64,000 bases of DNA from contig DASYUC010000145.1 of assembly GCA_036001645.1 (NCBI GenBank), positions 1,534-65,533 of the forward strand, written 5' to 3'. The notes beneath the pieces are model-generated. The model had not been told where the DNA came from. It did not search any database and saw nothing but the letters and a program-made list of their open reading frames with translations. Of the stretch, positions 98 to 49,701 are shown piece by piece (within the stretch, counting starts at the first letter, position 1; every line of letters begins with the position of its first letter). The translations under genes were made by a program, and so were the position numbers. Origin of the DNA: Candidatus Limnocylindria bacterium. GTDB taxonomy: Bacteria; Chloroflexota; Limnocylindria; P2-11E.

Positions 98-1780
98 TTG
101 CCGATCAGTGGTCAGGAGCTGCCCGCCGAGCCCGACCTCTGGGCGCCCGTCGGCTTCGAGCACCTGCCGCGCGAGCTCGTGTCGGCCTTCCGGGGCGCCG
201 ACTGGCCGCAGGTGCGGATACGGCTCCAGACCGTAATGGACGGCATGATCACCGATGGCCCCTACGGTCGCGAGCTGTTCCAGCTCGTACTCCAGCTCCC
301 GCTCGGATTCGATCCGGTCTTCGAGCGTTATCGCGCGTCGGCGATGGTCGACCACGGCGATTGGGACGCCCTCCGCAGCTCTCTCGCGGCGCAGCCGCTG
401 GAGCCCGCGGAGGTCCGGGGGATACGCGACATCATCACCGCTCCCGTCGATCGGGCGAGCCTCCCGCTCATGACGGAATTCCACCATCGGGTCCTGTTCG
501 AGACCTACGAGTTCCAGGCTCGTCGCTCGATGGGCCCATACCGCCACTGGGCACAGCGCATCGCGAACTACTACCCGGACCTGCTGTGGCAGCGCGACGA
601 CATCCCGATCGGCAGACACCTCCGCTATCGCCGTCTGCACGACACGATCTGTCTGGCCATCGGCGAGGCGCACGCTGGGCGGCTCGAGGTCGCGCATGCG
701 CTCGCGCGCGAATCGCAGCGCCTCGGGGACGAAGGCGAGCCGATGCGGATCGTCGCGCGCGACTTGGCGGAGCTCGTTCGTCTCGGTATGGGAGAGAAGC
801 GCGAATTCGAGCTCGCGCTGCCCGCGCACGTCTGCCGTCCGACGGGGCCCTCGCCGCAAGGCGTGTGGGAGTTCCTCCTCTTCCTCATGCCCTTCCTCGC
901 GCTCCGAGAGGATGGATCGCTCGGGTGGGCAGCGCGCCTGGCGGAGCGCATCGCGGTCCGGCTGGCCGCGCCGCGGGCCGAGCTGCAGGCGATCTCGTGG
1001 ATCGTGGCGAGCGAGCTTCGTGCGGGACGACGCGGCCGCGACACCGAGCTTGCGGGACTCGTCGCGCAAGCGCGGCGCAGCCCGCCTGGACTCAAGGGAC
1101 TACCGGTGTTCCTGTCGGGCTATGCCGAACGGAGCTACGAAGCGTTCCGCGAGGCCGAGCACCTGGCGCGGCGTGCGGGCAACGTGTGGCTGCAGGTGAG
1201 CGCGCTGGTGTGGATGCTCGCGATCGAGCCGCAGGGTTCGACGGCGCGTCGCCTCCATCGGCTTCTCGACATCACCGCGTGGCGGCAGCCCGTCCTCGCG
1301 CCACCCGAGGTCGCGGCGGACGCCGCGCTGGCGATGACCGTGACCGGCGAGCGTGGCCGATCGATCCTCGAGCTCGCGCTCACGTCCGACCGGCCCGCGG
1401 TGACAACGGAGGTCGTCATGCGCCACCTGGACGACCCGAACGTGACGAACGCCGCGCGCACCGCGGCCGTCGACGTGCTCGGGCTCGTCGGCACGATGCA
1501 GGCGCGGGACATCCTCGCGCGGCTCGCGAAGCGCAACGACGACGTGGGCCGCTCCGCGGCGAAGCTGTCCGCGCGCGCGGGGACGCACCTCTCACTCAGC
1601 GAACGCGAGGTCGAGGTGCTGTCGCTCGCGGCGGATGGCCTGACGAACCGCCAGATCGCGGAGCGGCTCTACCTCAGCCCGCACACCGTGGCGCGGCACC
1701 TCGCGAACGCGCGTGCGAAGCTCGGCGCGTCGAATCGCGCCGAGGCCGCGGTCCGGCTGGAGAAATCGCGTGAGTCATGA
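98..1780 (+). CDS. LuxR-family transcriptional regulator (560 aa), tandem paralog A
   Basis: TTG start at 98 follows GGGGAGGG. The C-terminal LSEREVEVLSLAADGLTNRQIAERLYLSPHTVARHLANARAKLG is a LuxR/GerE HTH, preceded by a HEAT-like stretch. The N-terminal ~450 aa are not recognised. Confidence 0.8.
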   Translation: MPISGQELPAEPDLWAPVGFEHLPRELVSAFRGADWPQVRIRLQTVMDGMITDGPYGRELFQLVLQLPLGFDPVFERYRASAMVDHGDWDALRSSLAAQPLEPAEVRGIRDIITAPVDRASLPLMTEFHHRVLFETYEFQARRSMGPYRHWAQRIANYYPDLLWQRDDIPIGRHLRYRRLHDTICLAIGEAHAGRLEVAHALARESQRLGDEGEPMRIVARDLAELVRLGMGEKREFELALPAHVCRPTGPSPQGVWEFLLFLMPFLALREDGSLGWAARLAERIAVRLAAPRAELQAISWIVASELRAGRRGRDTELAGLVAQARRSPPGLKGLPVFLSGYAERSYEAFREAEHLARRAGNVWLQVSALVWMLAIEPQGSTARRLHRLLDITAWRQPVLAPPEVAADAALAMTVTGERGRSILELALTSDRPAVTTEVVMRHLDDPNVTNAARTAAVDVLGLVGTMQARDILARLAKRNDDVGRSAAKLSARAGTHLSLSEREVEVLSLAADGLTNRQIAERLYLSPHTVARHLANARAKLGASNRAEAAVRLEKSRES

Positions 1781-3453
1781 GTAGCCAGACGCTCCCGGCC
1801 GACCCCGACCTCTGGGCGCCGGTCGGGTTCGAGCACCTGCCGCCCGAGCTCGTGTCGGCATTCCGCGGTGGCGACTGGCCGCAGGTGCGCGTTCGGCTCC
1901 AGACGGTCATGGATGGTGCGATCACCGACGGGCCGCACGGTCGCGAGTTGCTCCAGCTCGTACTCCAGCTCCCGCTCGGATTCGATCCGGTCTTCGAGCG
2001 CTACCGCGCGTCGGCGATGGTCGATCACGGCGACTGGGACGCCCTGCGTAACTCTCTCGCGGCTCATCCGCTCGAGCCCACCGAGATCCTCGGCCTACGC
2101 GACATCATCACCGCTCCCGTCGATCGCGCGACCCTACCCGTCGCGACAGAGCCCCATCATCGGGTGCTGTTCGAGATCTACGAGTTCGAGGCCCGTCGCG
2201 CGATGGGCCCGCAGCGCCACTGGGCGCAGCGCATCGCGAACTACTACCCGGACCTGCTGTTCAAGCGCGACGACATCCCGATCGGCAGACACCTCCGCTA
2301 TCGCCGGTTGCACGACACGCTTCAGCTGGCGATCGGCGAGGCGCAGGCCGGACGCCTCGAGGTCGCGCACGCGCTCGCGCACGAATCGCAGCGGCTTGGC
2401 GACGAAGGCGAGCCGCTGCGCGTCGTCGCGCGCGACCTCGCAGGGCTCGTCCGTCTCGGCATGGGAGACAAGCATGATTTCGAGCTCGCATTCCCTGCGC
2501 ACGCGTGCCGTCCGACGGGACCGTCGCCACAGGGCGTATGGGAGATGCTCTTCTATCTCATGCCGTTCCTCGCGCTGCGAGAGGACGACTCGCTCGCCTG
2601 GGCTGCCCGCGTCGCGGAGCGCATCGCGGTGCGGCTGGCGGCGCCGCGCGCCCAGTTGCAGGCGATCTCGTGGATCGTTGCCGGCGACCTTCGCGCGGGA
2701 CGCCGCAGCCGCGACACCGAGCTCGCGGGACTCGTCGCGAAAGCGCGGCGCGCCACACCGGGACTCCGAGGCCTCCCGGTCTTCCTGTCGGGCTACGCCG
2801 AGCGGAGCTACGAGGCGTTCCGCGAAGCCGAGCATCTCGCGCGGCGCGCGGGCAACGTATGGCTGCAGGTGAGCGCGATGGTCTGGATGCTGGCGATCGA
2901 GCCGGAGAGCACGACAGCACGCCGGCTCCATCGGCTCCTCGACATCACCGCGTGGCGACAGCCGATACTCACGCCGCCGGATGTCGCCGCCGATGCGGCG
3001 CTGGCGATGACGGTGACTGGCGAGCGTGGCCGTTCGATCCTCGAGCTCGCGCTCACCGCGGGCCGACCCGCGGTCACGACGGAGGTCGTCATGCGCCACC
3101 TCGATGACCCGAACGCCACGAGCGCAGGACGGACGGCGGCCGTCGACGTGCTCGGGCTCGTCGGCACGATGCAGGCGAGAGACATCCTCGCGCGGCTCGC
3201 GAAGCGCAACGACGATGTGGGCCGCTCAGCGGCGAAGCTGTCCGCGCGAGCCGGATCGCACAGCTCACTCAGCGAGCGCGAGGTCGAGGTGCTCTCGCTC
3301 GCGTCGGAGGGCCTCACGAACCGCCAGATCGCGGAACGCCTCTACCTCAGCCCGCACACGGTCGCCCGTCACCTCGCGAACGCACGCGGAAAGCTCGGGG
3401 CGTCGAACCGCGCCGAGGCCGCGGTCAGGCTGGAGAAATCACGGGAGCCCTAA
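1777..3453 (+). CDS. LuxR-family transcriptional regulator (558 aa), tandem paralog B
   Basis: The ATG overlaps the stop of paralog A (ATGA). It is collinear with A over its full length and has the same C-terminal LuxR HTH. Confidence 0.8.
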   Translation: MSSQTLPADPDLWAPVGFEHLPPELVSAFRGGDWPQVRVRLQTVMDGAITDGPHGRELLQLVLQLPLGFDPVFERYRASAMVDHGDWDALRNSLAAHPLEPTEILGLRDIITAPVDRATLPVATEPHHRVLFEIYEFEARRAMGPQRHWAQRIANYYPDLLFKRDDIPIGRHLRYRRLHDTLQLAIGEAQAGRLEVAHALAHESQRLGDEGEPLRVVARDLAGLVRLGMGDKHDFELAFPAHACRPTGPSPQGVWEMLFYLMPFLALREDDSLAWAARVAERIAVRLAAPRAQLQAISWIVAGDLRAGRRSRDTELAGLVAKARRATPGLRGLPVFLSGYAERSYEAFREAEHLARRAGNVWLQVSAMVWMLAIEPESTTARRLHRLLDITAWRQPILTPPDVAADAALAMTVTGERGRSILELALTAGRPAVTTEVVMRHLDDPNATSAGRTAAVDVLGLVGTMQARDILARLAKRNDDVGRSAAKLSARAGSHSSLSEREVEVLSLASEGLTNRQIAERLYLSPHTVARHLANARGKLGASNRAEAAVRLEKSREP

Positions 3454-6013: not shown

Positions 6014-6970
6014 CTAGCGCACCACCGCCGGCGCGAGCGCCGGCTCTTCGACGCGGACGGCGAGCTCTTTCACGAAGAGCATCGCCGTGGCCGCGTCGCG
6101 GAAGCCCTCGGACAGCAACGCGCGCGCGACGTGCTCTTCGTATGACCGCACCGGCGATGTGATCGGCCGCCCCGGGGGCAGCGCGCGGACCGCCGCGCGC
6201 ACGAGATCGCGAGCCACATCGACATCGCCGGCCTCGGTGCGCACCTTCAACACGTGCGGGTGGCGATCCATCCCGGCGAACGCCAGCGCGACCGCGCAGG
6301 GCTTCGACTGATCGTGATCGATGAGCGCCATCCGGCGGCGCATCGCGAGCGGATTGCCGCCGATGAGATGCGGCGGGTCGTACGCCCCGCCGCGCCTGCC
6401 GAGGTCGAAGTCCTGCACGGAGAGCTGCTCGGCCCGCTGCACCGCGTGCGGCGTCGTCATCGCGTAGAAACGGAAGAGGTCGTGCGCGTCGACTGACGTC
6501 GCTTCGCGCGCGTGCATCCGCTGCGAGGGCGCGGGCAGCGCGGCGCCCGCCGCCGCGTACCAGGTCTCGCGGGTGTAGGAGTAGAAGCCCGCCTGGAAGA
6601 ACGTCTCGCGGGGGCGCACGTCATCGGGCACCGCCGCGAAGAGGCGCTGCATCCCGGCGCGCGCGGCAGACGCGCTGATGCCCGAGAGCAGCCGGAACGC
6701 GCTATCCGTCCCGCCGGGTTCGGGCAGCGCCGCCAGCATGAGGACGACCCACTCCGGCCGCCGGCCGTCGTAGACGAACGCGGTGCTCCGCAGCTGGCCG
6801 CGGTACTCCTCGAGGTAGACGCGCAGCCGTCCGTTCAGGCCGAACAGCCCGTTGATGAGGCCGCGCCAACCACCGACCGCGCCGCCGGCCAGCGGCACCG
6901 GGAGCGCGGACGCCACGATGCCCTCGCGCGTGTGCACGGCGGACTCGAGCAAGGCAGAGATACGGCGCAT
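6014..6970 (-). CDS. Hypothetical protein (318 aa)
   Basis: Start trimmed to the ATG at 6970, because the longer track ORF would overlap pdxT. I recognise no confident family. Confidence 0.5.
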   Translation of the reverse strand: MRRISALLESAVHTREGIVASALPVPLAGGAVGGWRGLINGLFGLNGRLRVYLEEYRGQLRSTAFVYDGRRPEWVVLMLAALPEPGGTDSAFRLLSGISASAARAGMQRLFAAVPDDVRPRETFFQAGFYSYTRETWYAAAGAALPAPSQRMHAREATSVDAHDLFRFYAMTTPHAVQRAEQLSVQDFDLGRRGGAYDPPHLIGGNPLAMRRRMALIDHDQSKPCAVALAFAGMDRHPHVLKVRTEAGDVDVARDLVRAAVRALPPGRPITSPVRSYEEHVARALLSEGFRDAATAMLFVKELAVRVEEPALAPAVVR

Positions 6971-19262: not shown

Positions 19263-19306
19263 AAGCCCAGTCTAGGTGCGCGTCGCGTACATGCGTACGC
19301 GCGGGG

Positions 19307-19367
19307 CAGCTATCGGACGCGTCGCGAGCGAGAGTCGAGACCGCGGTATCGGGCGATGTGCCCGCTG
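19307..19367 (+). repeat. Partial copy (C) of the GC-rich palindromic intergenic repeat family
   Basis: GAGCGAGAGTCGAGACCGCGGTATC matches the copy B interior at 22/25. GCGATGTGCCCGCTG matches the copy B arm at 14/15. The central ~45 nt are missing. Confidence 0.6.
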
Positions 19368-19374
19368 TCGACCC

Positions 19375-21726
19375 TTACGGCCGCTTGGTCGGTTTCGGTG
19401 TCGGGAGCGGACGCGGCGGCGGCGTCGCCGACGGACGTGGGAGGGCGGACGGATTCGCCGAGGGTGACGTCGATGGCTTCGGTGCGAAGCCGCAGATGTT
19501 CCAGCTGAAGCGTCCGTAGCTATATGTGCCCGAGACCGCGCCCGAAGCCCAGGAGTTGTAGTACGGCTGCCAGTCGGCGAACGGCGCGATCAGGCGGATG
19601 CCGCATGAGGTGTAGAAGTCGGCGTCGTTCGTCTTGGGCTCCGTGCCCTCCACGTAGTGCTCGTTGAAGCGGAAGCCGCTGGGGCAGGACGGGCCGGGCA
19701 GCATGCCGGAGCCGTTTCCGCCCATCTTCGACGGGTTCACGCACACCGTACGATCGACGATGCCCGCGGGCTTGTCGTACCACGTGGGCGGGAGCCCCCC
19801 GACGACGGTCTTCATGTAGTCGCGCCACAGCACGCCGGGGCCGAGCGCGGACGAGATGCCCTTCATCTCGGAGTTGTCGGAGTTGCCCATCCAGATCGCC
19901 GTGAGGCGCTGGGGCACCCAGCCGATCGCGAGCACATCCTTCTGGTCGTCGGTCGTTCCGGTCTTGAGCGCGGCGGTCCGGCCGATGTTGGTCCACGGGC
20001 CGAACACGAACGAGCCCTCCGGGTTGGTGTTGTCCTTGAGGATGTCGGCCATGATCCACGCCTGCCGTGGATCGAGGACCTGCTTTCCCTCGGGCTTGGA
20101 CCAGTCGCGCACGACCTTCCCGTTCGGATCGACGATCTTGTGGATGAACGTTGGCTCGACTCGCACGCCCATGTTCGCGATGACCTGATAGGCGCTCGCC
20201 ATGTCGATGAGGCGCATCTCGCCCGCGCCGATGCCGAACGACAGACCGAGCTGGGTGCGGTCCCAGTCCCGGTCGATGCCGAGCTGGTGGATCGTGTCGA
20301 TGATCGCGTCGATGCCGACGGTCCGCGTGACCTGAAGCGCGGGCAGGTTCAGCGACTCGCGCAGCGCCTGGCGCATCGTGGTCGGGCCGTGCTGCTCCCG
20401 CGTGGCGTCCTTGGGCTCGTAGAAGGTCCCGCTGCCGTCCGGCATCCGCCATTGGATGTCGTAGAGACGCGTCGATGCCGTCATTCCCGCTTTGAGCATC
20501 CCGGTGAGGTAGGTGAACAGCTTGAACGTCGAGCCCGGCTGCCGGTACGCGATGCCGGCGTGGTCGTAGTCGCCCTGCATCTTCGGCGTGTTGCCGTAGT
20601 AGTCGTAGCTGCCGACGTAGGCGAGGATCTCACCGGTCGTGGGATCGATCGTGATCAGTGCCGCGTTGTTCACGTTGAAGCCTTTCAGGCTGTCGACGTG
20701 ATCGCGGACTTCCTTCTCCGCGAGCTGCTGCATGTTCCAGTCGAGCGTCGTAAAGACGGTGTAGCCGCCGCGATACGCGGCCTTCTCGCCGAGCTCCCGG
20801 ATGATCTGCTCGCGAACGCGGAACGTGAAGTGCGCCGCGTAGAGGGACGTCGATGCGGCTTTCACGACGATGGGCTCGGCCTTCGCCGCGTCGGCCTCGC
20901 TCACGGTGATGTAATTGCTCTCGACCATCGCGTCGAGGACCTGCGCACGCCGCGCCTTCGCGGCACCCGGGTTCTGCACCGGATCGTAGTCCGACGGTCG
21001 CTGCGCGAGACCGGCGAGCATCGCCATCTGTCCGAGCGTCAGCTTCATGAGGTCGGGCTGGTCGAAGTAGGTCTTGGCGGCGGCCTCGATCCCGTAGGCC
21101 TGATTGCCGTAGTAGATCTGATTCAGGTACATCTCGAGGATCTGCTTCTTGCTGAACGTGCGGGTGGCCTCCATCGCCAGGATCGCTTCCTTGATCTTTC
21201 GCGTGAAGGTCGGCTCGTCGCCGAGCAGCCGCGTCTTGATCAGCTGTTGCGTGATCGTCGAGCCACCCTGCGAGATCGTGCCGCTCGCCGCGTTCGCGTT
21301 CATCGCGCGGACGATGCCGCCGATGTCGATCCCCGGATTCGACCAGAAGGACTTGTCCTCGATCGCGATCGTCGCTTCCTGCATCCTCTGCGGGACGGCG
21401 TCGAGGCTCACGAGCTCGCGGCGCTCCTCCTCGAGCGTGTAAAGGAGATGCTCACCCGAGCGATCCCAGATCTTCGTGGTCTGCGGGATCGGGATCGTCG
21501 CGAGGTCGTGCGCGGCCGGCAGGTCGGCGGCGAAGTAGCCGAACACGGCCGCCGCCGCCACGCCCCCGAGGGCGAGCATCGCCAGGAAGAAGGCGCTGAT
21601 CCCGCCGGCCAGTGGGCCAAGCCGTTGACCGGCTCCAGGGCGGCGGGAAAGACGCCCGCCCTTCCGTAGTGGAAAGCGATACGAGCGGTAAGAGCGTCCC
21701 AGGGTGGACCGACCCGCGGATGCCAT
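19375..21726 (-). CDS. Class A penicillin-binding protein (transglycosylase/transpeptidase)
   Basis: GT51 motifs (IAIEDKSFW, GGSTITQQL), transpeptidase STFK and KTGTT, N-terminal TM, and a Pro/Ser/Thr-rich C-terminal tail. Confidence 0.9.
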   Translation of the reverse strand: MASAGRSTLGRSYRSYRFPLRKGGRLSRRPGAGQRLGPLAGGISAFFLAMLALGGVAAAAVFGYFAADLPAAHDLATIPIPQTTKIWDRSGEHLLYTLEEERRELVSLDAVPQRMQEATIAIEDKSFWSNPGIDIGGIVRAMNANAASGTISQGGSTITQQLIKTRLLGDEPTFTRKIKEAILAMEATRTFSKKQILEMYLNQIYYGNQAYGIEAAAKTYFDQPDLMKLTLGQMAMLAGLAQRPSDYDPVQNPGAAKARRAQVLDAMVESNYITVSEADAAKAEPIVVKAASTSLYAAHFTFRVREQIIRELGEKAAYRGGYTVFTTLDWNMQQLAEKEVRDHVDSLKGFNVNNAALITIDPTTGEILAYVGSYDYYGNTPKMQGDYDHAGIAYRQPGSTFKLFTYLTGMLKAGMTASTRLYDIQWRMPDGSGTFYEPKDATREQHGPTTMRQALRESLNLPALQVTRTVGIDAIIDTIHQLGIDRDWDRTQLGLSFGIGAGEMRLIDMASAYQVIANMGVRVEPTFIHKIVDPNGKVVRDWSKPEGKQVLDPRQAWIMADILKDNTNPEGSFVFGPWTNIGRTAALKTGTTDDQKDVLAIGWVPQRLTAIWMGNSDNSEMKGISSALGPGVLWRDYMKTVVGGLPPTWYDKPAGIVDRTVCVNPSKMGGNGSGMLPGPSCPSGFRFNEHYVEGTEPKTNDADFYTSCGIRLIAPFADWQPYYNSWASGAVSGTYSYGRFSWNICGFAPKPSTSPSANPSALPRPSATPPPRPLPTPKPTKRP

Positions 21727-24006: not shown

Positions 24007-24078
24007 TACCCCCGAGGCGGATCGAACGCCTGTCTACGGCTTCGGAGGCCGCCGCTCTATCCACTGAGCTACGGGGGC
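24007..24078 (-). tRNA. tRNA-Arg (anticodon CCG)
   Basis: Reverse complement GCCCCCGTAGCTCAGTGGATAGAGCGGCGGCCTCCGAAGCCGTAGACAGGCGTTCGATCCGCCTCGGGGGTA folds as a cloverleaf. The anticodon loop is CTCCGAA. No CCA is encoded. Confidence 0.85.
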
Positions 24079-37900: not shown

Positions 37901-38674
37901 TCACTCTCCCTTCCATACCGGCTTCCGCTTCTCCATGAAGGCCTGCACGCCCTCGCGGAAGTCCCGGCTCATGTAGCAGAGGAGGATGAGGTCGGCGCTC
38001 TCCTCCGGGAGCATGCGCTCGCGGATGCGCCGAAGCGCCTCCTTCGTCGCCTGCAGCGTCAGCGGCGCGTGCGACGCGATCGTCCGCGCGAGCTCGTCGA
38101 CCCGCGGCACGAGCGCGTCCTCGTCCTTCGTGACCTCGTGGTAGAGGCCGATCCGAAACGCCTCGTCCGCGTCCAGGAGACGCGCGGTGAAGACGATCTC
38201 CTTCACGCGCGCGACCCCGACGAGCGACGACAGGCGCACGAGGTTGGCCATCGAAAAGCAGTTGCCGAGGGTCCGCGCGACCGGGACGCCGAAGCGAGCG
38301 GAGGGCGCCGCGATGCGCAGGTCGCAGGCGGCGGCGATCGCGGCCCCGCCGCCCACGACCGGGCCTCGCAGCGCGGCGATCGTCGGGACGCGCACGCGCT
38401 CCAGCGCGGTCATCCAGGCATCCATACGCGCTTCGTACTCGAGCGCGTCCTGCTCCTTCGTGAATCCGCTGAACTGCGAGATGTCAGTGCCCGAGACGAA
38501 TGCGCCGCCCGCGCCGGTGAGCACGAGAGCGCGAACGCCGCGATCGGCATCCACTTCGCGGGCGACCTCGGCCATGCGCTCGTACATCGCGAACGTCATC
38601 GCATTGCGCGCCTCGGGCCGATTGAACGTGAGCCACACGACGTCGCCACGGCGCTCGACGAGCACTTCGCTCAC
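37901..38674 (-). CDS. Enoyl-CoA hydratase/isomerase (crotonase family)
   Basis: LTFNRPEARNAM, VLTGAGGAFVSGTDI, and GPVVGGGAAIAAACD. Confidence 0.85.
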   Translation of the reverse strand: MSEVLVERRGDVVWLTFNRPEARNAMTFAMYERMAEVAREVDADRGVRALVLTGAGGAFVSGTDISQFSGFTKEQDALEYEARMDAWMTALERVRVPTIAALRGPVVGGGAAIAAACDLRIAAPSARFGVPVARTLGNCFSMANLVRLSSLVGVARVKEIVFTARLLDADEAFRIGLYHEVTKDEDALVPRVDELARTIASHAPLTLQATKEALRRIRERMLPEESADLILLCYMSRDFREGVQAFMEKRKPVWKGE

Positions 38675-39867
38675 GCCGCCGCCACCGTCCCGCGCGCCAC
38701 GAACGCGCGGACCTCCTCATCGGAGTGTCCGATCTCACGAAGCACCTCGGTGGAGTGCTCGCCCAGCAGTGGCCCGGCACGCTCGAGGCGCGCCGGTGAA
38801 GAGCGCAGGCGCAGCGGGGTGCCCAGCGCGCGGACGGTCCCGAGCCGCGAGTGCGGCAGATCGACGAAGAAGCCTCGCTCGCGAAGGTGCGGATCGTCGA
38901 AGACCTGGCCGTAGTCCTGGATCTCCGCGCAGGGAACGCCGGCCTGTCGCAGCACCGCGAGCCAGTGCGCCGCCGGACGGGTAGCGGTGACCTCTTCGAT
39001 GAGCGGGATGAGCTCCACTCGGTTGCGCTGCCGGAGGGTCCCATCCGCGAAGCGCGGATCGCGCTCCAGGCGTTCGAGTCCGAGCGCAGCGCAGAACGCG
39101 CGCCAGGTCGGCACGGTGGTCGCTCCGAGCACGAAATGCGCGTCCGCGGCGCGCACCGCCTGGTACGGACCGACGAGCTTGTGGGCGGATCCGGCCGCGC
39201 GCGCGATCTCTCCGGTGGTAAAGAACTGTCCGGCCTCCCAGACCGCGAGAGAGACCGACGACTCGTACATCGAGATGTCGACGAGCTGCCCGCGGCCATC
39301 GCGCTGGCGGACGCTCAGCGCGGCGAGGATGCCGATCGTCGCGTACAGGCCCGCCGCGAGGTCGGAGATCGACACGCCCACCTTTACCGGCGCGCCTCCC
39401 TCCTCGCCCGTGACGCTCATGAGACCGCTCATCGCCTGAACGATGATGTCGAGCGCCGGACGGTCGGCGTAGGGGCCGTCGAGACCCCAGCCGGTGACCG
39501 CGGCGTAGACGAGGCGCGGATTCGCGTCGAGCAGGGCCTGCGGCTCGAGGCCGAGGTCGCGCATCGTGCCGGGCCGGAGGTTCTCCACGACGACATCGGC
39601 CCGCGCGGCGAGGCGTCGAAAGATCTCGGCGCCGGCCTCCTGCTTCAGATCGAGGGCGACGCTGCGCTTACCGCGATTGAGTCGCACGAAGTTGCCGCTC
39701 TCGCCGTCGACGAACGGCTCGAGGCGTCGGGACAGATCCCCGCCACGCGGGTCCTCGATCTTGACGACGTCGGCACCGAGATCCCCGAGCTGCATCCCAC
39801 AGAACGGACCCGCCATGTAGTTACCGACCTCGAGGACACGGATCCCCTCAAGGGGTGGTGGAGGCAT
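38671..39867 (-). CDS. Family III CoA-transferase (CaiB/BaiF)
   Basis: LEGIRVLEVGNYMAGPFCGMQLGDLGADVVKIE and a conserved Asp region. Confidence 0.85.
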   Translation of the reverse strand: MPPPPLEGIRVLEVGNYMAGPFCGMQLGDLGADVVKIEDPRGGDLSRRLEPFVDGESGNFVRLNRGKRSVALDLKQEAGAEIFRRLAARADVVVENLRPGTMRDLGLEPQALLDANPRLVYAAVTGWGLDGPYADRPALDIIVQAMSGLMSVTGEEGGAPVKVGVSISDLAAGLYATIGILAALSVRQRDGRGQLVDISMYESSVSLAVWEAGQFFTTGEIARAAGSAHKLVGPYQAVRAADAHFVLGATTVPTWRAFCAALGLERLERDPRFADGTLRQRNRVELIPLIEEVTATRPAAHWLAVLRQAGVPCAEIQDYGQVFDDPHLRERGFFVDLPHSRLGTVRALGTPLRLRSSPARLERAGPLLGEHSTEVLREIGHSDEEVRAFVARGTVAAA

Positions 39868-39907
39868 GCGCGGAGTCTAGGGAGAGAAGCCGAGCCATCG
39901 TCGGAGC

Positions 39908-40006
39908 CAGCGGGCGCATCGCTCTCTCGAAACGGGCCCGCTCCGCGCGCTTGCGCCCCGGAGTGCGATCCCGCGGCCTCGACTCTCGTTCGCGATGCGC
40001 CCGCTG
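39908..40006 (-). repeat. Full copy (B) of the GC-rich palindromic intergenic repeat family
   Basis: Perfect 15-bp arms CAGCGGGCGCATCGC (39908-39922) and GCGATGCGCCCGCTG (39992-40006) enclose 69 nt. The interior is homologous to copy A in reverse orientation. Confidence 0.8.
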
Positions 40007-40044
40007 ACTCCCATCCCTACGAGCGCATGAGGACTGGATCGCGA

Positions 40045-41151
40045 CTAGCACTCCCCCCAGCGCTCGGCCACCTTGCCGTCGCGGAGTCTCCAGACACCCG
40101 ACACGCCGCCACTCGAGCCGATGATCCAGAGATCCTGGCCGCGAGCGAACACGCTCGTCAGGACACAGGTCGTTCCGATGTCGACGCGTTCGAGCACAGG
40201 CTTCGGTGCGACCTCAGGGGCGACAGGACTGACGAGAAGCGCGCCCTGGACCCTGAGCACGACGCCGTCGTCACCCACGGCCCACGCGGTCGATCCCACC
40301 GCGGTGACCGAACGCAGCGGAGTGTCGATCCCGGACTCGACCTTCGACCACTCGAGCCCGGAGAGCGCGAGGACCGTCCCGCCGTCGCCGACGGCGACCG
40401 CGGTGTCGATCTTCGGCGCCGCGATCGCGCGAAGCGTGACATCCACGCCGGTCTTCACCGGCCGCCAACCGGCGGCCTCGAGGCGATAGCTGATCCCCTG
40501 GCTCCCGACGACCCAGGCGGATTGCGCATCGAAGACGATCAACGCGTTCAGGTCCTCCTCGATGCCGGCCGCGTACGGCTGCCAGGTCCCGCCGGACAGC
40601 AACATGACCAGACCCTGAGTGCCCACGACCATCGCGCCCTGTGGCATGGCCGCGACGCCCCTGAGGTCCTCGAGCGTCACGTCGAATGTGTTGATCGAAC
40701 GCGCGCGGTCGTCGACGATGAGGACGGCCCCGACCGGGCCGACGCCGTAAAGGATCCCGGCGTCGCACGACGCATGAGTGAGGGTCCGCAGCGTGCCGTC
40801 CACCTGAGTCCAGTCCTTCCCGTCGTAGCGGATCAGGCCGCCGCCGTTGCTCACCACCCAGAGTCCCTGCTCCGTGACGCAGCCGGCGGACAGCGTCTGC
40901 CGGAAGACGGAGGGATCGGTCGTCGGCACCGGCGTTGGCGTCGGGACCGCGACGGTCGGCGTGGGACGCGGTGTCGCGCGCGGTCGCGCGATGGTTCCCA
41001 CCGCGAGGCCCCCTCCGATCGCCGCGACAACGAGGAGCACGGCGATGATCCCGGCGTACGAGAGGGGTAACGGGCTGGCTTTCGCCGGCGCGGGGCTGGG
41101 AGGACCCTGGACCTCTGGTGGCGGTGGCGGTGGCGGCGTCGTCGCCATCAC
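40045..41151 (-). CDS. Membrane-anchored beta-propeller-like protein (Ycf48/BNR-like repeats), Pro-rich N-terminus
   Basis: MMATTPPPPPPP, one TM, then repeated G-x-V/I-x...W-x-x-V blades. The ATG overlaps the htpX stop. Confidence 0.5.
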   Translation of the reverse strand: MMATTPPPPPPPEVQGPPSPAPAKASPLPLSYAGIIAVLLVVAAIGGGLAVGTIARPRATPRPTPTVAVPTPTPVPTTDPSVFRQTLSAGCVTEQGLWVVSNGGGLIRYDGKDWTQVDGTLRTLTHASCDAGILYGVGPVGAVLIVDDRARSINTFDVTLEDLRGVAAMPQGAMVVGTQGLVMLLSGGTWQPYAAGIEEDLNALIVFDAQSAWVVGSQGISYRLEAAGWRPVKTGVDVTLRAIAAPKIDTAVAVGDGGTVLALSGLEWSKVESGIDTPLRSVTAVGSTAWAVGDDGVVLRVQGALLVSPVAPEVAPKPVLERVDIGTTCVLTSVFARGQDLWIIGSSGGVSGVWRLRDGKVAERWGEC

Positions 41152-42068
41152 ATCGCCTCGAGGCGGCGGATGCGCTCGGCGATCGGCGGGTGTGTGTCGA
41201 ACAGCCCGTCCAGGGCACGCGGCGCGTCCTTGAGCGGGTTCGCGAAGTACAGCGATGCGGTCGCCTTGTTCGCCACCTCGAGCGCCTCCTTGTCCGCGGC
41301 GATCTTGCGCAGCGCATTCGCCAGACCAGGCGGATAGCGCGTGAGAAGCGCGCCTGAGGCGTCGGCGAGGTACTCACGCTGTCGCGACACGGCGAGCTGG
41401 ATCAGCGTCGCGACGATCGGCGTGAGGATCGCGAGCGCGAGCGCGATGATCAGGACGATCCCACCGCCGCCGCCGCGATCGCGTCCGCGACGCCCGCCGC
41501 CACCCCACGCGAAGGAGCGGAGCATCCAGTCCGAAAGGAGCGCGATCGTTCCGACGAGCACGGTGACGAGAAGCATCACGCGGATGTCGTGGTTGCCGAC
41601 GTGCGAGAGCTCGTGCGCGATCACGCCTTCCAGCTCCGTGCGGTCGAGCTTGTCGAGCAGCCCGCGCGTCACGGCGATCGACGCGTGCTTCGGGTCGCGG
41701 CCCGTCGCAAACGCGTTCGGCGCGGTGTCATCGATGAGATAGATACGCGGCGGCGGGATGCCCAGTCCGATCGAAAGGGTCTCGATGATGTTGCGCAGCT
41801 GGGGCTCCTTTCCCCGTGCGAGCTCGCGCGCCTGGCTCTGCGCGAGGACGAGCTTGTCACCGGCGAAGTACGACGCCGTGGCGGAGACGCCGGAGAGGCC
41901 GAGCGCGGCGGGGACCATCGCGACACCGCCGCCAGGCGCGAATACCTCACCGACGACGTAGCCGAGGGCGATGAGTATGCCGGTGAACACCGTGATGAGC
42001 GCGACGGTGCGCCAGCGGTTCGCGGCGACGGCGTCGTAGATGTTGAGCCGCGCGGGCGGAGCTGCCAC
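41148..42068 (-). CDS. htpX: M48-family zinc metalloprotease HtpX
   Basis: HELSHVGNHD zinc motif, N-terminal TMs, and a C-terminal THPPIAERI. Confidence 0.85.
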   Translation of the reverse strand: MAAPPARLNIYDAVAANRWRTVALITVFTGILIALGYVVGEVFAPGGGVAMVPAALGLSGVSATASYFAGDKLVLAQSQARELARGKEPQLRNIIETLSIGLGIPPPRIYLIDDTAPNAFATGRDPKHASIAVTRGLLDKLDRTELEGVIAHELSHVGNHDIRVMLLVTVLVGTIALLSDWMLRSFAWGGGGRRGRDRGGGGGIVLIIALALAILTPIVATLIQLAVSRQREYLADASGALLTRYPPGLANALRKIAADKEALEVANKATASLYFANPLKDAPRALDGLFDTHPPIAERIRRLEAM

Positions 42069-48028: not shown

Positions 48029-48065
48029 GCGAGGGACGCGGCGCGCTGGGTTCGCCGAGGTGATC

Positions 48066-48172
48066 GCGGCGGCGGGCGTCTCTGGAGCGAAGTCGAGCCC
48101 GCGGGATCAGCAGGTCGGCGCGCCACGGCAGCGAAGCGGGCCCGTTTGAGCGACAGAGACGCCCGCCGCCGC
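48066..48172 (+). repeat. Full copy (A) of the GC-rich palindromic intergenic repeat family, in the zwf leader
   Basis: Perfect 19-bp arms GCGGCGGCGGGCGTCTCTG (48066-48084) and CAGAGACGCCCGCCGCCGC (48154-48172) enclose 69 nt. The right arm ends 5 nt before the zwf ATG. Confidence 0.85.
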
Positions 48173-48177
48173 GGCGT

Positions 48178-49701
48178 ATGACCGTCGCGCTCGCCAATCC
48201 GCTCCGCGAGGGTCTGCGGCTCGCGCGAACCCCGGAGCCGGCGTGTCTCGTCATCTTCGGTGCATCGGGCGACCTCACCGCGCGCAAGCTCATCCCGGCG
48301 CTCTACAACCTCGCGCTCCAACATCTGCTCCCGGCGAGCTTCGCGGTGATCGGTTCCGCCCGCCGCCGGATGACAACGGACGAGTTCCGCTCGGAGCTCC
48401 ACGACGCGGTCGCGGAGTTCAGCCGCACCAAGCCGATCAACGAAGAGGTCTGGTCGACATTCGCTCGGTCGATCCACTACGTCCCGACACCCGACGACCG
48501 CAGCTACGACGAGCTGGGGCACGTCCTCGCCCGCATCGACGGCGAGATCGGCGCGAACGGCAATCGTCTCTTCTACCTCGCGACGCCCCCGGCCGCGTAC
48601 GAGCCGATCATCCACGCGATCGGCGCTCATGGACTGCGTGGCGAGACCGGCTGGTCGCGCGTCGTCGTGGAGAAGCCGTACGGCCACGACCTCGAGAGCG
48701 CGATGCACCTGACGCACGTCGTCCAGGAGGTCTTCCGCGAGGACGAGGTCTTCCGGATCGACCACTACCTCGGCAAGGAGACCGTGCAGAACATCCTGGT
48801 CCTGCGCTTCGCGAACAGCATCTTCGAGCCGATCTGGACACGTCAGCACGTCGATCACGTGCAGATCACGGCCGCCGAATCGATCGGGATCGAAGAGCGG
48901 GCGGGCTACTACGACAGCGCCGGTGCGATGCGCGACATCGTTCAGAACCATCTCCTGCAGCTCCTCGCTCTCGTCGGGATGGAGCCTCCGTCCGCGTTCG
49001 ACGATCGTTCGGTACGCGACGAGAAGGTCAAGGTGCTGCGCGCGCTCCGGCGGATCGCACCGGACGAGGTCGGCGACCTCACGGTCCGCGGCCAGTACGG
49101 TCCCGGGTTCATCGGCGGCGAGCGTGTCGTGGGCTACCGCGATGAGCCTGGCGTCGCGCCGAACTCGCAGACCGAAACGTATGTCGCGCTCAAGTGCTTC
49201 ATCGACAACTGGCGCTGGGAAGACACGCCCTTCTACATCCGGACGGGGAAGCGGCTGCCGAAGCGCTCCACCGAGATCGCGATCCGCTTCCGGGTCGCTC
49301 CGCACCGGATCTTCACCCGCGAGTCGTCTCTGGGCCTCGACGCGAACGAGCTCGTCATACGGATCCAGCCCGACGAAGGCATCTCCCTCACGTTCGGGGC
49401 GAAGGTGCCGGTGCAGGGCCTGAAGATCCGTTCGGTGAACATGGACTTCGGATACGGCGAATCGTTCATGGTCGACGCGCCCGACTCGTACGAGACGCTC
49501 ATCCTCGACGCGCTCCGGGGCGACGCCACCCTCTTCACGCGCCGGGACGAGGTCGAGCAGCAGTGGGCATTCGTCGACCCGATCCTTGCCGGCTGGCAGG
49601 CGGGCCGGCAGGAGCTCGCGCTCTACGCCGCCGGCACGTGGGGGCCGGAGTTGGCCGACGCGCTCATCGCGCGCGACGGTCGGAGCTGGCGACGGCCGTG
49701 A
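48178..49701 (+). CDS. zwf: Glucose-6-phosphate dehydrogenase
   Basis: VIFGASGDLTARKL, RIDHYLGKE, and EKPxG motifs. Confidence 0.95.
   Translation: MTVALANPLREGLRLARTPEPACLVIFGASGDLTARKLIPALYNLALQHLLPASFAVIGSARRRMTTDEFRSELHDAVAEFSRTKPINEEVWSTFARSIHYVPTPDDRSYDELGHVLARIDGEIGANGNRLFYLATPPAAYEPIIHAIGAHGLRGETGWSRVVVEKPYGHDLESAMHLTHVVQEVFREDEVFRIDHYLGKETVQNILVLRFANSIFEPIWTRQHVDHVQITAAESIGIEERAGYYDSAGAMRDIVQNHLLQLLALVGMEPPSAFDDRSVRDEKVKVLRALRRIAPDEVGDLTVRGQYGPGFIGGERVVGYRDEPGVAPNSQTETYVALKCFIDNWRWEDTPFYIRTGKRLPKRSTEIAIRFRVAPHRIFTRESSLGLDANELVIRIQPDEGISLTFGAKVPVQGLKIRSVNMDFGYGESFMVDAPDSYETLILDALRGDATLFTRRDEVEQQWAFVDPILAGWQAGRQELALYAAGTWGPELADALIARDGRSWRRP

Follow-up and report, generated by a model that had tools for sequence, protein, structure and literature searches.

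Copy B, a hairpin-forming sequence in a Candidatus Limnocylindria genome (GenBank assembly GCA_036001645.1, contig DASYUC010000145.1, positions 1,534 to 65,533; this 64,000-nt stretch is hereafter the window), appears to be one member of an interspersed repeat family, not described before, whose ∼110-bp units form hairpins and which, as far as sampled, is confined to Chloroflexota of the class Candidatus Limnocylindria. Because its copies are dispersed, nested, resident in frame inside genes, reduced to remnants, and free in orientation, the element is probably a DNA-level palindromic interspersed element of the kind represented by MITEs (miniature transposable elements with inverted repeats), REPINs, and Rickettsia palindromic elements (RPEs), and not a gene-specific RNA.

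The window contains two full copies (A and B), which confirms the original prediction, and a degenerate one (C; Table 1). Pattern scans derived from A and B returned at least ∼30 further copies at about 20 unrelated loci, every one of them in Chloroflexota/Candidatus Limnocylindria genomes or soil metagenomes. A strict pattern run against GTDB species representatives gave six matches, of which four were true copies, all in Chloroflexi/Candidatus Limnocylindria soil metagenome-assembled genomes (MAGs; CF_39, CF_64, and SMAG_U4607), and two were chance matches (L001 and L006). With a relaxed pattern, metagenome contigs yielded at least ∼28 more copies; most of the 120 metagenome stretches with a pattern match were chance, recognisable as such by eye, and were used as negative controls, and none of three matches in viral contigs was real. 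A covariance model built from 30 copies (alignment A2) scores true copies at 78–116 bits, added four copies that the patterns had missed (L005:3030-3146, L015:2123-2242, L051:2628-2716, and L136:14340-14456), and, at E ≤ 0.01, matched nothing in control loci, GC-rich and unrelated, that total 250 kb. Element-bearing dihydroorotases are labelled Chloroflexota or Ca. Limnocylindria by their sources. The family had not been recognised in the original prediction, and Rfam holds no match to the element, either for the whole window at gathering thresholds or around A and B at E ≤ 10; these scans returned only a tRNA gene (24007-24078, minus strand, 65.7 bits), which is the sole Rfam match in the window, and one sub-threshold snoRNA-type chance match. 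Judged by title and abstract, none of the papers retrieved on Limnocylindria repeats appears to treat the element.

Read on the minus strand, copy B consists of two arms around a 69-nt interior. The 15 inner arm pairs (39908-39922 with 39992-40006) are perfect, as first reported, and five outer pairs extend the stem to 20 bp, one of them a U-G on the minus strand that becomes an A-C mismatch on the plus strand. Copy A has the inverse orientation that had been described, with its core on the plus strand; its arms, thought to be 19 bp long, form 20 perfect pairs whose sequence is unrelated to that of the copy B arms. Both interiors are indeed 69 nt. Around apices unrelated in sequence they have in common GAGCGA(G)AGTCGAGNCCGCGGGATC on the 5′ side and G(A/G)AGCGGGCCCGTTT(C)GAG(C/A)GA on the 3′ side. 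Of the GC palindromes claimed for both centres, that of copy A is clear (GGCGCGCC) and that of copy B only loose. Exactly three sites in the window carry the 18-mer AGTCGAGNCCGCGGNATC, the third of them in copy C. Folded as RNA, the purine-rich strand reached z-scores of -4.8 for B and -5.6 for A, and none of the shuffled sequences folded equally well; folded as DNA, both hairpins are strong on both strands.

Copy B ends 40 nt before the CoA-transferase start codon (39867) when counted from 39908, in agreement with the original prediction, and 35 nt before it when counted from the extended arm end at 39903; the stop codon of the gene for the 368-aa protein is 33 nt upstream. Copy A separates gnd (6-phosphogluconate dehydrogenase) from zwf (glucose-6-phosphate dehydrogenase), and 4 nt lie between its 3′ arm and the zwf ATG (48178). 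Since no unpaired ribosome-binding sequence remains between this arm and the predicted zwf start (48154-48180), initiation of zwf translation could be affected by the hairpin. Copy C, which had not been listed before, retains its 5′ arm and 5′ core intact, and its decayed 3′ half overlaps the low-complexity tail of the PBP gene, which encodes the C terminus; the orthologous sites in L065 and L051 carry full copies. A spurious 739-aa open reading frame (ORF) spans copy B on the plus strand (38851-41070), and similar long ORFs occur at other loci in this ∼69% G+C DNA; automated gene calling may lengthen genes or invent them here. A paralogous duplication of the copy B neighbourhood (repeats D18 and D20, ∼3.93 kb apart) was rejected as chance similarity, the region encoding an unrelated sugar-kinase-like gene.

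Table 1. Element copies in the window, parts of copy B, and genes flanking copy B (window coordinates)
Feature	Position	Strand	Remarks
Copy B, full element	39903..40011	-	Hairpin with 20-bp arms, a conserved core, and an apex; covariance model 103 bits
Copy B 5′ arm, GGAGTCAGCGGGCGCATCGC (minus-strand reading)	39992..40011	-	In-place alignment to the L002, L004, and L032 arms
Copy B conserved 5′ core block, GAACGAGAGTCGAGGCCGCGGGATC	39967..39991	-	
Copy B apex, unconserved	39945..39966	-	30–35% identity to orthologous copies
Copy B conserved 3′ core block, GGAGCGGGCCCGTTTCGAGAGA	39923..39944	-	
Copy B 3′ arm, GCGATGCGCCCGCTGGCTCC (minus-strand reading)	39903..39922	-	
Copy A, full element between gnd and zwf	48065..48173	+	Covariance model 78 bits
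Copy C, degenerate	∼19303..19410	+	Between PBP1A and polyprenyl-synthase genes, antisense to both; 20 bits
Family III CoA-transferase gene	38671..39867	-	3′ of copy B; orthology anchor against L002, L004, and L032
Gene for 368-aa membrane-anchored protein	40045..41151	-	5′ of copy B

Throughout the family, inverted GC-rich arms of 15–20 bp differ in sequence from locus to locus and keep their complementarity. They enclose a conserved, strand-asymmetric core (5′ GA(G/A)CGAGAGTCGAGNCCGCGG, 3′ GGAGCGGGCCCGTTTCGAG(C/A)GA) and an apex of ∼25 nt with no sequence conserved across the family. Covariation in the arms, proposed earlier as a check, is very strong: in the 30-copy alignment, 95% of cells are paired, compared with 34–51% when partner columns are slid, double changes occur at sixteen pairs of the outer stem, and none of 500 shuffles reached any observed measure. 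Such covariation is no evidence for an RNA, because template switching would yield perfect but divergent arms together with apparently compensatory changes; it is known to homogenise inverted-repeat arms, invert spacers, and expand arms (PMC8604942, PMC13100816, PMC8794818), and it can mimic compensatory evolution (PMC8794818). The arms are perfect and divergent, as the original prediction had noted, but its reading of this as the signature of a stem under selection does not follow from the arms by themselves: template switching between inverted-repeat arms homogenises them and inverts spacers in the absence of selection (PMC8604942, PMC8794818).

Judged by its sequence, the purine-rich strand of the core can fold into an irregular helix that includes two tandem G.A/A.G pairs. 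The best-fitting register runs, in its outer part, through G.A, A.G, N27-N96, C-G, G.A, A.G, G-C, A-U, G-U, U.U, C-G, and G-C, and in its inner part through an unpaired A, G-C, a position opposite C that varies, and lastly a helix of four pairs (5′ CCGC with 3′ GCGG). This register is supported by the joint deletion of G31 and C92, one whole pair, in copies A and L097, and by covariation at 27:96, which takes the forms G-C, A-U, G-U, or A.A. The tandem G.A pairs exist on one strand only, as the complementary strand would have pyrimidine mismatches.

Several known structures were compared with this fold and rejected. A k-turn does not fit, the 3x5 loop of the element not being a canonical one and the 27:96 covariation and paired deletion favouring a continuous helix with tandem G.A pairs; no known ribozyme, nor the group II domain V consensus, fits when compared by eye. 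Integron attC sites have the core sites R″/R′ (RYYYAAC ... GTTRRRY) and lie in a cassette array beside the integrase; the element has GTTTCGA and GTTTGAG, which are not GTTRRRY, and its neighbours are housekeeping genes. A terminator scan found no U-tract after the hairpin, which is therefore not an intrinsic terminator by that criterion, and a promoter scan of the element gave no signal. In the flanks of ∼30 copies, the commonest subfamily often has ..RGGAGA before CAGCGGG.. and GCGAY after ..CCCGCTG, and the conserved unit may extend a few bases past the hairpin arms.

Neighbouring genes were identified at about 20 distinct loci by a gene call based on G+C content at third codon positions (GC3) and by Pfam annotation; about 18 of the loci bearing the element are intergenic. 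The neighbours serve unrelated housekeeping functions (M23 peptidase, radical SAM, BatA/VWA, glyoxalase, NUDIX, ABC transporter, Rieske proteins, SufBD, PBP1A, polyprenyl synthase, CinA, DUF5667, DNA polymerase III delta′, AlkZ-like glycosylase, and FabH), and the downstream genes share no common pathway. Orientation is mixed: most loci have the copy antisense to both neighbours, a few have it in sense, and at three it lies in a gap between convergent genes. The cumulative GC skew of the window has its minimum near 40 kb (∼38000-42000), near the divergence of gene orientations and of the B and A copies; with |skew| ≤ 0.04 it is too weak to link element orientation to replication, and this candidate was dropped.

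These contexts bear on the possibility that the element works as RNA, either as a small RNA or as a structured cis-regulatory one such as a riboswitch-like leader, and acts from the sense strand on the gene downstream. The two full window copies fit such a reading, as both lie in sense to co-directional flanking genes and near a start codon, as had been reported; the very strong covariation, the conserved internal loops with tandem G.A pairs on one strand only, and the excess of G-T over A-C mismatches on that purine-rich strand (15 to 6) also fit. Outside the window, however, the sense placement breaks down: in three MAG or metagenome loci the copy orthologous to B, ahead of the CoA-transferase gene, is inverted, most other intergenic copies are antisense or between convergent genes, and further copies reside in both orientations in the coding sequences of pyrC and carB. 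Fixed sense orientation before functionally related genes, as expected of a riboswitch, is thus not what is found, the compensatory signal can come from template switching (PMC8794818), and no Rfam family matches. Mixed orientation and unrelated neighbours rule out a gene-specific cis-regulatory RNA, and the wider reading, largely refuted by orientation and context, is highly improbable.

The dihydroorotase gene pyrC carries the element in frame in L003, L123, L015, and L005, between the TPHHL..DWV and KVNPPLR motifs, where comparison with the solved dihydroorotase 3gri reveals an insertion of ∼46 aa (query residues 234-281 align to two residues). A second copy, found in L005, L015, and L136, sits in frame in carB between FEPL and QFGGQT. 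In both genes the element adds 36–46 residues and keeps the reading frame in either orientation. Placing the inserted peptide on an AlphaFold model of PyrC was abandoned, the model being too poor: its mean predicted local distance difference test (pLDDT) score is 55, and the insertion (241-287), like about half of the protein, is below 50.

We sorted 120 close PyrC homologues (78–100% identity to the query) into sense, antisense, and short states. Forward full copies read ..WEREGSRARVETAT..ERARFERESPPAP.. and inverted ones ..WEREPSLARNGPAP..SRLSLERAPAP..; the antisense class takes in longer nested composites, in which 83–94 residues over TPHH-NPPLR comprise the 5′ half of a forward copy followed by an inverted full copy. 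Short forms keep arm-derived residues only, and a shortest form also exists. The state changes between proteins with flanks 95–99% identical. In all ten protein clusters at 90% identity, of which some have as many as 28 members, the state is uniform. The flips are therefore fixed differences between lineages, and the ten clusters gave no evidence of rapid phase variation. Many dihydroorotase fragments from public assemblies (cluster members P0125, P0132, P0166, P0169, P0173, P0174, P0177, P0189, P0192, and P0194) start or end in the element or just past it, a pattern suggesting that the hairpin interrupts contigs or gene calls, whether because it is hard to assemble or because strains differ.

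In-place inversion of the interior was found at three of roughly seven loci with comparable orthologues, namely the CoA-transferase (copy B), pyrC, and carB loci. At the first, L002, L004, and L032 (including MAGs CF_39 and CF_64) share with the window the end of the upstream gene, the CoA-transferase start, and arms that align in place, and have the interior inverted. The carB element is flipped between L005 and L015. The pyrC inversions happened in place, because copies of opposite orientation share lineage-specific core variants: L134 and L133 have in common the unusual GAGGGTCGAG and CCCGTC(T/G)TYCCGAG, and L131 and L132 have GAGACTGCGAC and GGAGCAGGCCCG. The latter two close relatives also have GGG and CCC swapped on both arms, a multi-nucleotide difference of compensatory appearance.

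Other copies are nested, duplicated in part, or decayed. A full copy lies inside the apex of another in L065 (4630-4930), nesting recurs in L130, and an extra solo 3′ half directly adjoins a full copy in L002 (1800-1900) and L051 (930-1010). Short forms resemble deletions between purine-rich direct repeats or between arm and core, and the apparently empty carB site of L135 looks like a remnant. In the L005 carB copy (6726-6956), 13 bp of upstream carB coding sequence (GACTGGGCGACGC) are repeated in inverted form downstream, which lengthens the arms to ∼37 bp; the orthologous L015 copy lacks this inverted duplicate. The element has been inherited vertically, inverted in its interior in place between lineages, and reduced to remnants by internal deletion.

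Inversion with the frame preserved, at pyrC and carB alike, invites comparison with invertons, in which an invertase acting at the arms or core would flip the 69-bp interior, intergenic copies altering expression and the pyrC and carB copies recoding proteins. Intragenic recoding invertons are known in other bacteria (PMC10028968) as inverted-repeat-flanked segments that keep the frame in both orientations; three inverted loci among roughly seven would suit such a switch, and the conservation of core and arms could mark a recombinase site. Against this, orientations differ only between lineages, each PyrC cluster being uniform (assemblies give the majority orientation), no recombinase gene lies near any copy examined and no invertase was found, spacers between inverted-repeat arms can invert without an enzyme by template switching (PMC8604942), and the deletions and nested copies at the same sites resemble instability and not a switch. 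The element is, moreover, a dispersed multi-locus repeat. We regard invertons as distinctly unlikely.

Conservation in place is uneven along the element. At the copy B locus, the arms are 90%, the core 88–95%, and the apex 30–35% identical between the window and L002/L004, compared with 68–70% at third codon positions of the adjacent CoA-transferase gene. At the pyrC loci, synonymous sites are 56–79%, the core 76–100% (5′ block 85–100%, 3′ block 76–100%), and the apex 43–77% identical. Hypervariability of the apex was rejected as a general property, as it diverges at about the synonymous rate at pyrC and exceeds that rate only at the copy B locus.

Such a pattern could also arise if the element were domesticated, that is, an immobile DNA cruciform, or an RNA hairpin in either orientation, serving as a host binding or processing site, an mRNA-stabilising hairpin, or an RNase target. 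A role as a nucleoid or gyrase-type site has been proposed for REP/BIME. Arms and core far more conserved than synonymous sites around a free apex, orthologous copies kept across lineages with synonymous identity of only 56–79%, a hairpin that is stable as RNA and as DNA on both strands, and the absence of visible recent transposition are all in keeping with a host role. A generic hairpin role nevertheless leaves the conserved asymmetric core and the free orientation unexplained, copies are readily lost or reduced to remnants and sit inside essential enzymes, and neither a U-tract terminator nor a promoter signal is present. This explanation seems rather unlikely to us.

Template switching between the arms during replication would generate perfect arms, concerted changes of compensatory appearance, spacer inversions, and outward arm extension. 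Spread would require that the purine-rich strand fold as a single-stranded hairpin and be recognised through its G.A core by a trans-acting enzyme, for which an HUH/Y1-type transposase is the obvious candidate, although none was found in the searched loci. Template switching leaves the conserved asymmetric core unaccounted for. On our inference the core serves recognition: once the purine-rich strand has folded as a single strand, an enzyme or a host protein would read it, a view to which the 15 to 6 excess of G-T over A-C arm mismatches on that strand lends weak support. The conservation of arms and core in place would then stem from recognition by the enzyme, or from a role that the host has acquired for the structured site, as DNA or RNA.

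A number of observations weigh against a DNA-level mobile repeat. No transposase, RAYT, or recombinase was found beside any copy at the ∼20 loci or among the window genes between ∼21 and 60 kb, so the RAYT-type transposase sought earlier did not turn up, and tblastn searches of ∼0.4 Mb of relevant DNA with IS608 and IS200 TnpA queries, a weak test, gave nothing above noise. The 30 copies inspected have no target-site duplication, only a loose ..GGAGA / GCGAY.. context. The G-T excess among arm mismatches, to which copies of shared ancestry contribute in part, weakly favours single-strand folding of the purine-rich strand, as RNA or DNA alike. Conservation of arms and core in place lies well above the synonymous level, which a dead selfish element should not show, so that some function or means of maintenance is implied. 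The window has two to three copies in 64 kb, yet few extra copies were found in ∼340 kb of related loci, and no two copies at different loci are near-identical, so that nothing points to recent transposition and the whole case for mobility is historical.

Among known systems, the element is by analogy closest to RPEs in behaviour and to REPINs (PMC3116915) in hairpin logic. In Rickettsia, palindromic elements lie in frame inside genes (PMC10969869). Like these repeats of ∼100–150 bp, the element occurs both between genes and in frame in unrelated metabolic genes, here pyrC and carB, with the inserted segment translated as an extra peptide and no transposase identified in either case (PMC10969869). 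It differs in its host, a ∼69% G+C member of the unrelated phylum Chloroflexota, in its unrelated sequence, and in having arms that vary by locus around a conserved asymmetric core; in-place inversion and nested self-insertion are documented here for the element.

REPINs are likewise hairpins of ∼100 nt with a less conserved centre and compensatory changes (PMC3116915), able to form long hairpins in single-stranded DNA or RNA, and they too persist vertically for long periods at fixed sites and leave remnants (10.1101/2021.07.10.451892). In architecture the two part ways: a REPIN is symmetrical and extragenic, with two conserved inverted REP ends around a variable spacer, whereas the element has variable ends, 5′ and 3′ blocks that are purine-rich on the same strand and partly complementary without being mutual reverse complements, and copies inside genes. 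Membership among REPIN/REP/BIME elements was therefore rejected on architecture, and the sampled loci contain no RAYT. Small non-coding repeats of the MITE kind (Correia/NEMIS, ERIC, RUP, and BOX) resemble the element in their inverted termini, their location in transcribed intergenic space, and their occasional in-frame fusion to ORFs (PMC10969869). A classical MITE is excluded by the lack of target-site duplications in the 30 copies and by arms that are not conserved across loci as terminal inverted repeats; nor was a parent insertion sequence identified. The palindromic mobile unit of the original prediction is accordingly supported in outline by dispersal over ∼20 loci, nesting, present, remnant, and absent states, and copies in coding sequences, and loses its REP/BIME affiliation. 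In template-switch hairpins and quasipalindromes, too, arms are homogenised and expanded, spacers are inverted, and multi-nucleotide changes of compensatory appearance arise (PMC8604942, PMC13100816, PMC8794818), but template switching is a mutational process and not a family, and it does not explain dispersal to ∼20 loci or the asymmetric core.

At the start of the window, two adjacent paralogous genes on the plus strand (2-1777 and 1777-3450; 592 and 558 aa) share stretches that are 79–91% identical at a constant spacing of 1673 nt (repeat families D1-D3, D6, D14, D16, and D17).

For RNA-motif discovery, the family is a caution, since near-perfect covariation and conserved loops accompany a context that excludes a gene-specific regulatory RNA. 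The element probably also breaks metagenome assemblies and misleads gene callers into long spurious ORFs and extended starts. The alleles at pyrC and carB, which include forward, inverted, nested, and deleted ones, form a natural series for following the evolution of hairpin DNA and the tolerance of proteins to it. Limnocylindria, an abundant uncultured soil class, become a second lineage with palindromic repeats in frame in core enzymes, previously known mainly from Rickettsia. To judge from the aligned copies, the in-place conservation of the asymmetric core points to a recognition partner. That the family is not decaying selfish DNA but an active system driven by this partner, a Limnocylindria HUH/Y1 relative or an invertase reading the G.A-paired core of a folded single strand and maintaining as well as flipping the hairpins across the genome, is unlikely; if it were so, the copies would be dispersed heritable switches, some of them recoding PyrC and CarB, or, equivalently, a replicator inherited vertically as REPINs are and new in its architecture.

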